DNA from: Escherichia coli
GTDB taxonomy: Bacteria > Pseudomonadota > Gammaproteobacteria > Enterobacterales > Enterobacteriaceae
Assembly (NCBI RefSeq): GCF_013122565.1
Contig: NZ_CP053258.1
Direction: 5' to 3' (one strand)
DNA: 64,000 nucleotides
Both the position numbers and the translations under genes were made by a program. Below the pieces are notes generated by a model. It saw nothing but the letters and a program-made list of their open reading frames with translations. It searched no databases and was not told the origin of the DNA. Position 1 is the first letter of the stretch; every line of letters starts with the position of its first letter. Below, piece after piece: positions 54,170 through 56,824 of this stretch.

Positions 54170-54343
54170 TCACATTATTTTGATTTTGACATCATAACTT
54201 TCAAGCCCGGTCATTTTTTCTCGTGCGGTGAAGCGAATTTCAGAGACTTCTTTCCCTGTATTCTTGTTCAGCTCGGCGATTTTTTGCGCGATAAAGTCGG
54301 CGATTTCCGTTTCGGCTTGTTTTTTTAACTCTTCAATATTCAC
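54170..54343 (-). CDS. gnsA: GnsA, small protein (overexpression increases unsaturated fatty acids)
   Basis: Reverse-strand translation gives VNIEELKKQAETEIADFIAQKIAELNKNTGKEVSEIRFTAREKMTGLESYDVKIKIM (57 aa, GTG start). It is missing from the ATG-only ORF track. Confidence 0.85.
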   Translation of the reverse strand: MNIEELKKQAETEIADFIAQKIAELNKNTGKEVSEIRFTAREKMTGLESYDVKIKIM

Positions 54344-54563
54344 TGTTAACCTCGTCTGGTCTTGAAAGACAGCAACACGCCAGTAAGGTGTTGGTTCCCG
54401 GTACCCTGGTCAGGTAAGAAATGTTATAAGCCATCTCCCCGAAAGATTCAATAATCAACAGGTTATCGCTTACTATACATACAGCGTTGAAGAAAAATAA
54501 GGCAGATATAAAAAAGGCTCCACGAGGGAGCCTGATATTATTTTGTGAAATCCAGCGGCGCAT
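54333..54563 (-). CDS. ymcE: YmcE (Sfa)-like small membrane protein
   Basis: 76 aa from MRRWISQNNIRLPRGAFFISALFFFNAVCIV... within ORF 54333..54596. Position between cspG and gnsA matches K-12 ymcE; name from synteny and length only. Confidence 0.5.
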   Translation of the reverse strand: MRRWISQNNIRLPRGAFFISALFFFNAVCIVSDNLLIIESFGEMAYNISYLTRVPGTNTLLACCCLSRPDEVNSEY

Positions 54564-54735
54564 GGTCAGTGCGTATTTGCAGCGCGACGTTATCAAAGGT
54601 GATCATCGTCGATTTACAAAAAATACACTTAGCGCCCAAAGGGTTTCGCTCCGTCACATCGAATGCCGATGTACGGTACTGTGAACCATGACAATATGGA
54701 CAGCGGAAATGGAGATGTTGAGTAATAACGGCAAC
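54538..54735 (-). CDS. Possible small zinc-ribbon protein (YmcF-like) immediately downstream of cspG
   Basis: ORF 54538..54798 carries CPYC-x20-CIFC. Its ATG lies inside cspG, so a GTG start just after the cspG stop (giving about 65 aa) is more plausible. Confidence 0.3.
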   Translation of the reverse strand, partial: VAVITQHLHFRCPYCHGSQYRTSAFDVTERNPLGAKCIFCKSTMITFDNVALQIRTDHAPLDFTK

Positions 54736-54736
54736 C

Positions 54737-54949
54737 TTAGAGCGTAACAACGTTCGCTGCCGCGGGGCCACGTTGCCCCTGCTCAATAGAAAATTCAACT
54801 TTCTGATTTTCGTTCAGCGTGCGGAATTCATTGCTCTGGATGGCGGTGAAATGGACGAAAACGTCTTTGCTGCCATCATCAGGAGTGATAAAGCCAAAAC
54901 CTTTATCTGCGTTAAACCATTTTACTAAACCAGTCATTTTATTAGACAT
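54737..54949 (-). CDS. cspG: CspG, cold-shock protein
   Basis: 70 aa, [34 protein letters not shown]... Confidence 0.95.
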
Positions 54950-55234
54950 ATTTTACTTCCTTCATTTTGGGCCTTTCGGCAAACAGGGCTTTAATACAGA
55001 AACTACTTAGTGTTCAGGAGAGAGACTCAAAAGAAGGGGATAATGCCTGATAATGAGAACTGCTTTAGTAAACTACTTTGTATGCTGTCTGTCTTTCAAA
55101 CCGACGCAGCTATTAACGCATGATAATTGAGATTAAGCAAATTTTATTTTAGCCGTCCGGCGGTCTTAAATATCGCTGGCTTTATTTTATTAACCCCGTA
55201 TAGTGCAGCGCAGTATTTTCAGTAAGGAATTTGT

Positions 55235-55447
55235 TTGTCCCGTAAAATGACAGGAATTGTCAAAACCTTTGATCGCAAAAGCGGCAAAGGATTCATTATC
55301 CCCTCCGACGGTCGTAAAGAAGTCCAGGTCCATATTTCCGCATTCACTCCCCGCGACGCAGAAGTGCTTATACCAGGATTACGCGTGGAATTTTGTCGCG
55401 TAAATGGCCTGCGAGGACCAACAGCGGCAAATGTTTATTTGTCTTGA
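55235..55447 (+). CDS. cspH: CspH, cold-shock-like protein
   Basis: 70 aa, [33 protein letters not shown]... Confidence 0.9.
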
Positions 55448-56745
55448 TGGAGAGCGCACGCCGGTATGCGTGCTTCATTCACGATTTGCGTAAAACCGGC
55501 CAACGAACACATGCCCTGCGCATTTCGCTCTTCACATCCTGCCAGGGTCAGTTTCACCTCTCCGGGCGGCGTATTTAATGACAGCGGCGTTTTATCACGC
55601 ATCTGCTGTAAAGTCTGGAAGACCAGCGAAACCTGAATCCACTGGCTGTTATCGCTTAGCCGACGCCAGCGTTCAAACACCAGTTCTCCACCTGGCGGCG
55701 TGTTATCCGGCTGACCTGGAAGCGTCCAGTTGAGCTCCAGTGCGCCGCCGAGATTTGCCAGATTAGTATCGTGTCCGGCGATAAACAGCACTGCTGTGGG
55801 TAATGTCACACCATACGCCTGTTTTTGCGGTGGATGGGGCGTCAACGCTGCCATGATCAAATCCAACAACGGGGTGGCGCGGCTGCGGGCAACCTCTGGC
55901 GTGCGTTGTAGTAAATAAAATTGCGCGTTATGCAAACTTAGCAAGGTGTTCCACTGGTGTGAATCAGTGATCCTTCCCCACCCCGGCTCCGGCATTCCTT
56001 GTGCCTGTTGCAGGAGAAATATCTCCGTCAGCATTGATGCTAGGCTTACCGCACCGGTTAATGAGACATTGTCGGCGCTCACCTTGAGTTCCGATGGTAA
56101 TGCCTGCGTTAATGAACAGCTTTCGTCCTGTTTCTCACGGTTAAGGCACAATTTTGATTGCGGAAAATTAAGCACCCGTTCCAGTTCGCGAAACGCCGTT
56201 TGCCGATGCCCGGTAAAGTCAGCAATTGATCCTCCTGCCCTGCTGAGGATCGCGTCAGTCACGTTCGCGTTATCCAGTTGGCAAACGCCAGTTTTTAGAG
56301 GATTAAATAACGGATCGGGACTGGACGTATCTGCCTGGGTATGTACGGTTATTGCACAGTCAGGTGCCAGCCCGGCGGCGAAGGCTTCGCCTGTTTTACG
56401 GGTACGCTCGTCGACATCAGCAATAATCGCGACCTGACCAAGCTGCGGGCAGCCCTTTTTCGTCAGCAATCCGTCGGCTACCAGACGCTGGCGTTGGTAA
56501 TGTCCGAGATAGGCGATCAGCTCACCACCGCGCGGTGTCAGCCAACCCAGTTTTACCGGCCAGGTTGGCCATGCGTCTGGGGTGACATCCTGCATCAGTT
56601 GCGTGGCCTTGGTTGGTGCACGCACACCATGACGACTGACAATCACCACACTTTCCAGCTTCAGCTCCGGCTCACTCTGAGCGAATGCAGATTGCGGGGT
56701 TAACGGAATCAGAAGAGATAAAAATGGGATCAAGATCGCTTTCAT
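55435..56745 (-). CDS. appA: AppA, periplasmic acid phosphatase/phytase
   Basis: From [29 protein letters not shown] motif. The C-terminus appears to differ from the K-12 protein as I recall it, and the 3' end overlaps cspH by 13 bp. Confidence 0.9.
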
Positions 56746-56824
56746 CGATATGTTTCCGCTTTTCATATCCGACATTATTGATTGCCTGATACGACGCTAA
56801 TGCGCCGCATCAGACTTACGTTCG

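Follow-up and report, generated by a model that had tools for sequence, protein, structure and literature searches.

Among the genes of Escherichia coli, infC and pcnB are translated from an AUU initiation codon, and this rare codon lowers and regulates their initiation. In infC, the AUU serves the autoregulation of an independent start by IF3, a factor which discriminates against AUU and is itself cold-induced. The small gene ymcF shares this rare initiation codon and, together with its paralogue ynfQ, sits in the best-studied cold-shock loci. In K-12, ymcF (b4723, YP_009518761.1) has 62 codons (189 nt), lies between cspG and ymcE/gnsA, starts with an ATT located 10 nt past the cspG stop and is followed by a terminator. 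Its paralogue ynfQ (b4724), found in the Qin prophage, encodes a 62-aa protein sharing 65% identity with YmcF; it starts with an ATT 10 nt past the cspI stop (UGAGG) and is directly followed by a terminator. The Qin module cspI-ynfQ-ynfR-ynfN-gnsB thus parallels cspG-ymcF-ymcE-gnsA, with the differences that its carrier is a phage or prophage, where it follows the lysis cassette, and that ynfR and ynfN stand in place of ymcE. Ribosome profiling published by Zhang et al. in 2018 in Mol Cell is said to be the source of the evidence for cold induction and of the name 'cold shock small protein'. The expression of ymcF varies jointly with that of cspG in RNA-seq lists (PMC10920338; PMC11728337), ynfQ has been tabulated as cold-shock induced (PMC11228462) and the cspG 5' UTR has been demonstrated to be a cold-responsive RNA thermometer (PMC13271884). 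In our literature search, 'ymcF' appeared in gene lists only, with no function described for YmcF, while VanOrsdel 2018 deals with YnfR and with a different 'YnfQ' name and not with YmcF.

We analyzed here a stretch of 64,000 nucleotides of E. coli contig NZ_CP053258.1, hereafter the window. A preliminary description of this DNA had pointed to a small frame of 86 codons at 54538-54798 on the minus strand, which is the strand of cspG, had read in it two CxxC pairs forming a four-cysteine zinc ribbon, which might belong to a nucleic-acid-binding factor, and had guessed that it could correspond to K-12 ymcF. The frame is real and uninterrupted, it encodes both CPYC and CIFC, and the guess proved right. 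Indeed, RefSeq ymcF (b4723) occupies exactly the same position in K-12 and in near-identical genomes, and the Pfam family PF23641 ('YmcF-like') matches the protein over its full length, residues 1-62 falling on profile positions 1-62 with 162 bits for a cutoff of 27 (E = 3.7e-48). The frame is ymcF, a gene already annotated in K-12 and present in Pfam and in NCBI naming, and hence not a discovery. The analysis establishes the gene identity, its coding status, the position of its start, the conservation of its cysteines, the anatomy of the operon and the phage paralogy. We consider it likely that ymcF is a conserved gene for a 62-residue, zinc-ribbon-like protein with four cysteines, that it comes second, after cspG, on a transcript inducible by cold, and that its translation from AUU would be coupled to that of cspG. 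The locus is built from the following features:

54538-54726, minus strand: ymcF coding sequence, 62 codons plus TAA (stop at 54540-54538), at the position of K-12 b4723 and of PGAP ymcF
54737-54949, minus strand: cspG coding sequence, the upstream cistron, with a Pfam CSD match
54727-54798, minus strand: upstream extension of the mechanical 86-codon frame, outside the gene, of a length that varies between genera
54724-54726, minus strand: ATT (AUU) used as a non-canonical start codon, as annotated in K-12
54735-54739, minus strand: UAAGG, in which the cspG stop (54737-54739) is fused to the core of the ymcF Shine-Dalgarno sequence, 8 nt before the ATT
54691-54702, minus strand: predicted first metal knuckle, CPYC, codons 9-12, with Tyr11 at 54694-54696; C9 and C12 are invariant and C11 nearly so
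54616-54627, minus strand: predicted second metal knuckle, CIFC, codons 34-37, inside an invariant GAKCIFCK block
54683-55105, minus strand: cspA-type thermoregulator (Rfam RF01766), covering the cspG 5' UTR, the cspG coding sequence and the first ~14 ymcF codons
54509-54533, minus strand: predicted intrinsic terminator AGGCUCC-CUCGU-GGAGCCU followed by U6 (hairpin 54533-54515), which begins 5 nt past the ymcF stop

Identity, extent and coding status of ymcF

Within the window, ymcF lies directly downstream of cspG and upstream of ymcE/gnsA, in the same layout as in K-12. The surrounding 1.4-kb region shows 99.6-99.7% identity to E. coli chromosomes, ymcF being annotated in those that are 99.7% identical, and is carried by 5379 of 5426 complete E. 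coli genomes; homologues of the protein are widely named 'cold shock small protein YmcF'. Compared to K-12, the protein differs by a sole residue change, C11Y, which replaces by CPYC the CPCC found in K-12 and in nearly all relatives. At the nucleotide level, the differences also include a synonymous change at R18 and a G instead of an A 3 nt before the ATT, and the ATT itself is common to K-12, strain PapM-32-1 and the window.

Regarding the extent of the gene, the preliminary description requires several corrections. It had proposed an ATG start inside cspG, or a GTG just after the cspG stop, leading to products of 86 or about 65 aa. The mechanical frame begins with TTG, its sole in-frame ATG is codon 41 of the real YmcF and the in-frame codons following the cspG stop read AAG GTT GCC GTT ATT, a GTT having, as it appears, been taken for GTG; the actual product counts 62 aa, from the ATT. 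Similarly, the spacer between the CxxC pairs, given as 20 residues, has 21. As for the overlap with cspG, it holds for the open frame, the 5' part of which extends over the last 62 nt of cspG in another frame because no stop codon occurs there, but not for the conserved and annotated coding sequence, which is free of any overlap.

To this locus we compared 80 loci from species-representative genomes (out of 190 found), making 81 loci with the window. Nucleotide diversity over ymcF codons 2-44 reaches 0.155, 0.092 and 0.498 at codon positions 1, 2 and 3, respectively, and the pairwise dN/dS is ~0.085, a substitution pattern indicating that the protein is under clear purifying selection, with a coding signal far above chance. 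In the alignment of homologues, protein conservation starts at the codon aligned with the ATT. Upstream of this codon, the frame stays open for 3 to 81 codons depending on the genus, several loci having a stop 3-9 codons upstream, and the extension is thus not conserved. Moreover, in 16 loci with ATT or ATC at the start, there is no in-frame ATG, GTG or TTG from the upstream stop to the conserved HFRCP motif. Because of this variable upstream frame, of the onset of conservation at the ATT and of these 16 loci, the comparison identifies AUU (AUC in Salmonella and Siccibacter) as the start codon and the 86-codon form as an accident of the E. coli sequence. Both the 86-aa form and the GTG start were hence rejected, the extension not being conserved and the codon being GTT.

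If translation began within cspG, from the TTG at 54798 or from another TTG or GTG upstream, the product would be a protein of 70-86 aa encoded in part by DNA overlapping cspG. The E. coli frame is indeed open over 29 codons upstream of the ATT, with TTG or GTG at -72, -60, -45 and -24 nt, and longer versions exist in some database entries, such as the 71-aa proteins of Citrobacter. However, the extension measures just 3-9 codons in Kosakonia, Yokenella, Trabulsiella and some Citrobacter, which, along with the 16 loci devoid of any canonical upstream start, the conservation from the ATT-aligned codon and the annotation of 62 aa in both RefSeq and K-12, makes such a long form very unlikely. We give still less weight to a non-coding region that would owe its conservation to the cspG 3' UTR, to the terminator or to an STnc220-like 3'-derived small RNA, a reading we regard as extremely improbable. 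It is true that the Rfam cspA model runs 54 nt beyond the cspG stop and that Rfam STnc220 corresponds to the ymcF 3' end plus the terminator, with 102 bits in Salmonella (S. enterica subsp. diarizonae, L014 2647-2726) and a weak match of 34 bits, below gathering, in the window (54500-54580, minus strand). Yet codon-periodic substitutions combined with a dN/dS of this order are the pattern of a protein, standalone copies initiated by ATG possess their own AGGAG Shine-Dalgarno sequence where csp is absent, the junction has no conserved RNA structure and a small RNA processed from the 3' end is compatible with coding anyway. The STnc220 region possibly represents an RNA derived from the 3' end of the csp-ymcF transcript.

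The cspG transcript, its surroundings and the phage module

The cspA-type thermoregulator was matched with 158 bits (gathering score 78, E = 7.8e-43), and the match begins where the 156-nt cspG leader would begin. After ymcF, hairpins equivalent to that of the window, with compensating changes, are found in Citrobacter, in Salmonella and in the phage copies. Because a thermoregulator covers the cspG leader and coding sequence and a terminator immediately follows the ymcF stop, cspG-ymcF has the appearance of a single bicistronic transcript inducible by cold. For the standalone, ATG-type copies, no cspA-type thermoregulator was found upstream, even at E <= 1. In Enterobacter hormaechei (L074 713-4196), such a copy is placed between two genes, one on the opposite strand whose translated frame alone makes it a look-alike of cytochrome bd subunit I (appC/cydA-like), the other resembling, by eye, a GntR/aminotransferase-type regulator; the 380-nt region upstream of this ymcF likewise contains no cspA-type thermoregulator.

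Several observations concern the neighboring genes. ymcE (Pfam YmcE_antitoxin; 54333-54563, minus strand) starts within the last 9 ymcF codons and runs through the cspG-ymcF terminator, an arrangement shared by the 21-codon ynfR in Qin and in phages. Full-length YmcE was encountered in Escherichia only, the gene being frameshifted in loci L007 and L034. Elsewhere in the window, cspH (55235-55447, plus strand) and appA (55435-56775, minus strand) overlap tail-to-tail, with 13 nt in common; what lies between cspH and appA in K-12, namely the etk-etp-gfcEDCBA group 4 capsule operon and an IS1D, is absent here; strain PapM-32-1 has the same cspH-appA layout. The appA frame of the window ends with ...ACALHQDK, whereas K-12 AppA ends with ...ACSL.

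In lambdoid phages (Tritos, HannyBb, mEp460, 2H10 and others), the same csp-ynfQ module is located just after the lysis cassette, and the ATT of the phage copies is likewise 10 nt past the csp stop. By this comparison, the chromosomal cspG-ymcF-ymcE-gnsA cluster is the counterpart of a phage accessory cassette. In five of nine phage records, the ynfQ/ymcF homologue is unannotated, likely because of its ATT start; in phage HannyBb (L085 2501-2689), a frame on the opposite strand was called instead, and our search of PHROGs returned no family for ynfQ/ymcF. An unrelated small zinc-binding family, YnfU (PF23499 / NF038384), also recurs near csp genes, ynfU being upstream of cspB in Qin (K-12, L003 4806-4976) and upstream of a pair made of csp and a YmcF-like gene in L086 (61-231).

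The four cysteines and the C11Y allele

The zinc-ribbon reading of the preliminary description fits the family. Indeed, conservation of the four cysteines across Enterobacteriaceae, which it had proposed to check, was confirmed: C9, C12, C34 and C37 are invariant in 30 homologues as well as in the most distant members. In the same 30 sequences, H6, P10, G14, Q16, R18, S20, D23, N28, P29 and the GAKCIFCK block are also invariant. What the most divergent members still share is limited to the four CxxC cysteines and to the GSQYR and NPxGAxCIFCK blocks; they have A, K, T, H, R, S, Q or N at position 11, and Q, L, G or S takes the place of H13. The protein of the window possesses the CxxC-x21-CxxC core and the HFRCP...GSQYR...NPxGAKCIFCK signature, with C11Y as its sole deviation, at a position that is variable in distant members. 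Of the 41 hits at E <= 0.001 obtained in a profile search of 1.84 billion representative proteins, two are spurious repeat proteins and the genuine matches are short proteins of the YmcF type; this search returned no remote homologue outside Enterobacterales-like sequences, and the named relatives of YmcF belong essentially all to Enterobacteriaceae.

The AF2 model of YmcF has a core with a pLDDT of ~90, and the top neighbors retrieved with it in a structure search are all zinc ribbons, through a similarity that is weak and generic. The best of them are the TFIIE-alpha zinc finger (1vd4), the TFIIB N-terminal ribbon, ribosomal eL43, Rpb12 and the rubredoxin-like domain of LapB, with which the model would have in common two CxxC knuckles flanking a small beta-hairpin core; weak Pfam matches to Zn_Ribbon_TF were also obtained. 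Other relationships were considered and found no support. A Rieske [2Fe-2S] protein is matched by a box II-like CPCCHGSQY only (E = 0.17-0.6), the second motif being CIFC with no CxH box and H13 being variable; the relation to the UvrA zinc finger amounts to the resemblance of a short CPxCHG motif; the ECs_2282 family (NCBIfam NF047912) reaches 17-20 bits for a cutoff of 37; and comparison with the YnfU family (NF038384 / PF23499) by hhalign gives a probability of 0.7%. Regarding the C-terminal tail (residues 48-62; 54541-54585, minus strand), it is predicted to be disordered and its sequence is variable. Nonetheless, 76 of 83 copies have exactly 62 aa, and the terminus [DE][FLYC][RKTH]K is present in 57 of 83, which hints at a terminal short linear or docking motif.

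The C11Y allele results from the change of codon 11 (54694-54696) from TGT to TAT. The 33-mer carrying TAT is absent from the 5426 complete E. coli genomes, 3943 of which contain the TGT version, and the exact protein with tyrosine (WP_157942097.1 / QJU27887.1) is on record from 3 contigs, for at least 1000 with the K-12 allele; it is also found in Escherichia sp. MOD1-EC7003 (L005). This is thus a rare natural variant at a cysteine conserved in the clade, and the change is probably tolerated since position 11 varies freely in distant relatives.

The AUU start codon and the upstream csp gene

At the aligned start codon, ATT or ATC is present in 46 of the 81 loci, and its distribution follows the upstream gene. 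When a csp gene lies directly upstream, ending 9-10 nt away, the start is ATT or ATC in 40 of 41 loci, including the window, whereas ATG is used in 34 of the 40 loci without an adjacent csp (30 at the aligned codon and 4 a few codons away), notably in Klebsiella, Raoultella, Enterobacter, Leclercia, Lelliottia, Silvania and others, many of them with a stronger AGGAG. Fisher's exact test yields p = 1.6e-15 if the loci are treated as phylogenetically independent, which they are not, and this value hence overstates the evidence. The exceptions are L021, with ATG despite an upstream csp, L035, L042, L050 and L076, with ATT but no csp, and the distant L087, which starts with ATC beside a phage tail-fibre gene and has no csp either. 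In Klebsiella and Raoultella, just the last ~12 csp codons (..PAVVNVVAKRG and the stop) are kept before the ATG-initiated ymcF, which looks like a loss of csp followed by a change of the start codon.

In the loci with an adjacent csp, every csp stop is a TAA or TGA with GG right behind it, placing UAAGG or UGAGG 8 nt before the start. In a 20-sequence alignment of the junction, T[AG]AGG is invariant and the spacer has a fixed length and a varying sequence. Most genera have a gap of 10 nt between csp and ymcF, which puts ymcF in the +1 frame; the gap is 9 nt in Kosakonia, where the two genes are in frame, and L086 has 13 nt. As the start is AUU or AUC with an adjacent csp and usually AUG without it, the start codon tracking csp adjacency suggests that translation of ymcF is coupled to that of csp. 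No conserved RNA structure was found at the cspG-ymcF junction (consensus energy of -1.4 kcal/mol, single-sequence z-score of -0.58), so that such a coupling would not be structurally enforced by occlusion. ymcF differs from infC in the position of its AUU, located 9-10 nt past the stop codon of a cistron translated at a very high level, and in the replacement of this AUU by AUG where that cistron is absent.

We thus propose a transcript that would start with the cspA-type 5' UTR thermosensor, continue through cspG and ymcF and end at the terminator 5 nt past the ymcF stop. Translation of ymcF would occur from the AUU 10 nt past the cspG stop, by means of the UAAGG overlapping this stop, ribosomes that finish cspG presumably re-initiating or being handed over at the weak AUU. 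Synthesis of YmcF would in this way be restricted to times of CspG synthesis, with a low and fixed ratio between the two proteins. In YmcF, the residues C9, C12, C34 and C37 most likely hold a single metal ion, probably zinc, and our guess is that the target of YmcF in the cold is RNA, or else a partner associated with the ribosome or with RNA.

The AUU could also be an IF3-sensitive, or simply weak, independent start keeping YmcF scarce, in a protein binding iron rather than zinc for a rubredoxin-like redox or Fe-sensing role. The five loci L035, L042, L050, L076 and L087, where ATT or ATC occurs without csp upstream, would fit such a start, and the cold induction of IF3 could be put forward as an argument for IF3-dependent control rather than re-initiation, but the start codon follows csp adjacency very strongly. 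For iron, one can invoke C11, H6 and H13, three further residues that are conserved in the Escherichia-Klebsiella clade and could serve as ligands, the resemblance of the CPCCHGSQY segment to the Rieske box II CPCHGSQY and a 2026 review modeling the paralogue YnfQ as rubredoxin-like with Fe2+ (PMC13348028). However, distant members have a wide variety of other residues in place of C11 and H13, C11 is a tyrosine in the window, Rieske box I is missing and the profile E-values against the PDB are of 0.007-0.6, and altogether we judge this alternative unlikely. Fusion of CspG and YmcF, by programmed frameshifting or stop read-through at CUC-UAA-GG, can be conceived from the E. coli sequence, in which the ymcF frame, at +1, runs without interruption past the cspG stop and a Shine-Dalgarno-like element is present at the stop, superficially as at the prfB frameshift site. 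Yet ymcF is not in the same frame relative to csp in all genera, the gap being of 9, 10 or 13 nt, and this virtually excludes such a fusion; besides, standalone copies exist and CUC to UCU is a poor slippery pair, and we attach next to no probability to it.

Returning to coupled translation from AUU, we tentatively extend it, as a possibility to which we lend less than even weight, to the family as a whole. AUU or AUC would be a re-initiation device tying a zinc-ribbon partner to Csp translation in a fixed low ratio in the cold, lineages that lost csp would have compensated with AUG and a stronger Shine-Dalgarno sequence, and YmcF/YnfQ, a factor present in lambdoid phages too, would be linked to Csp and directed at RNA or the ribosome. 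A true AUU start means that standard rules for calling open reading frames, like the preliminary description and most phage annotations, miss this gene or give it a wrong size. The switch from AUU or AUC to AUG upon the loss of csp makes the locus a good natural test case for the tuning of start codons by translational coupling, and this context-dependent AUU start is one aspect that might repay experiment.
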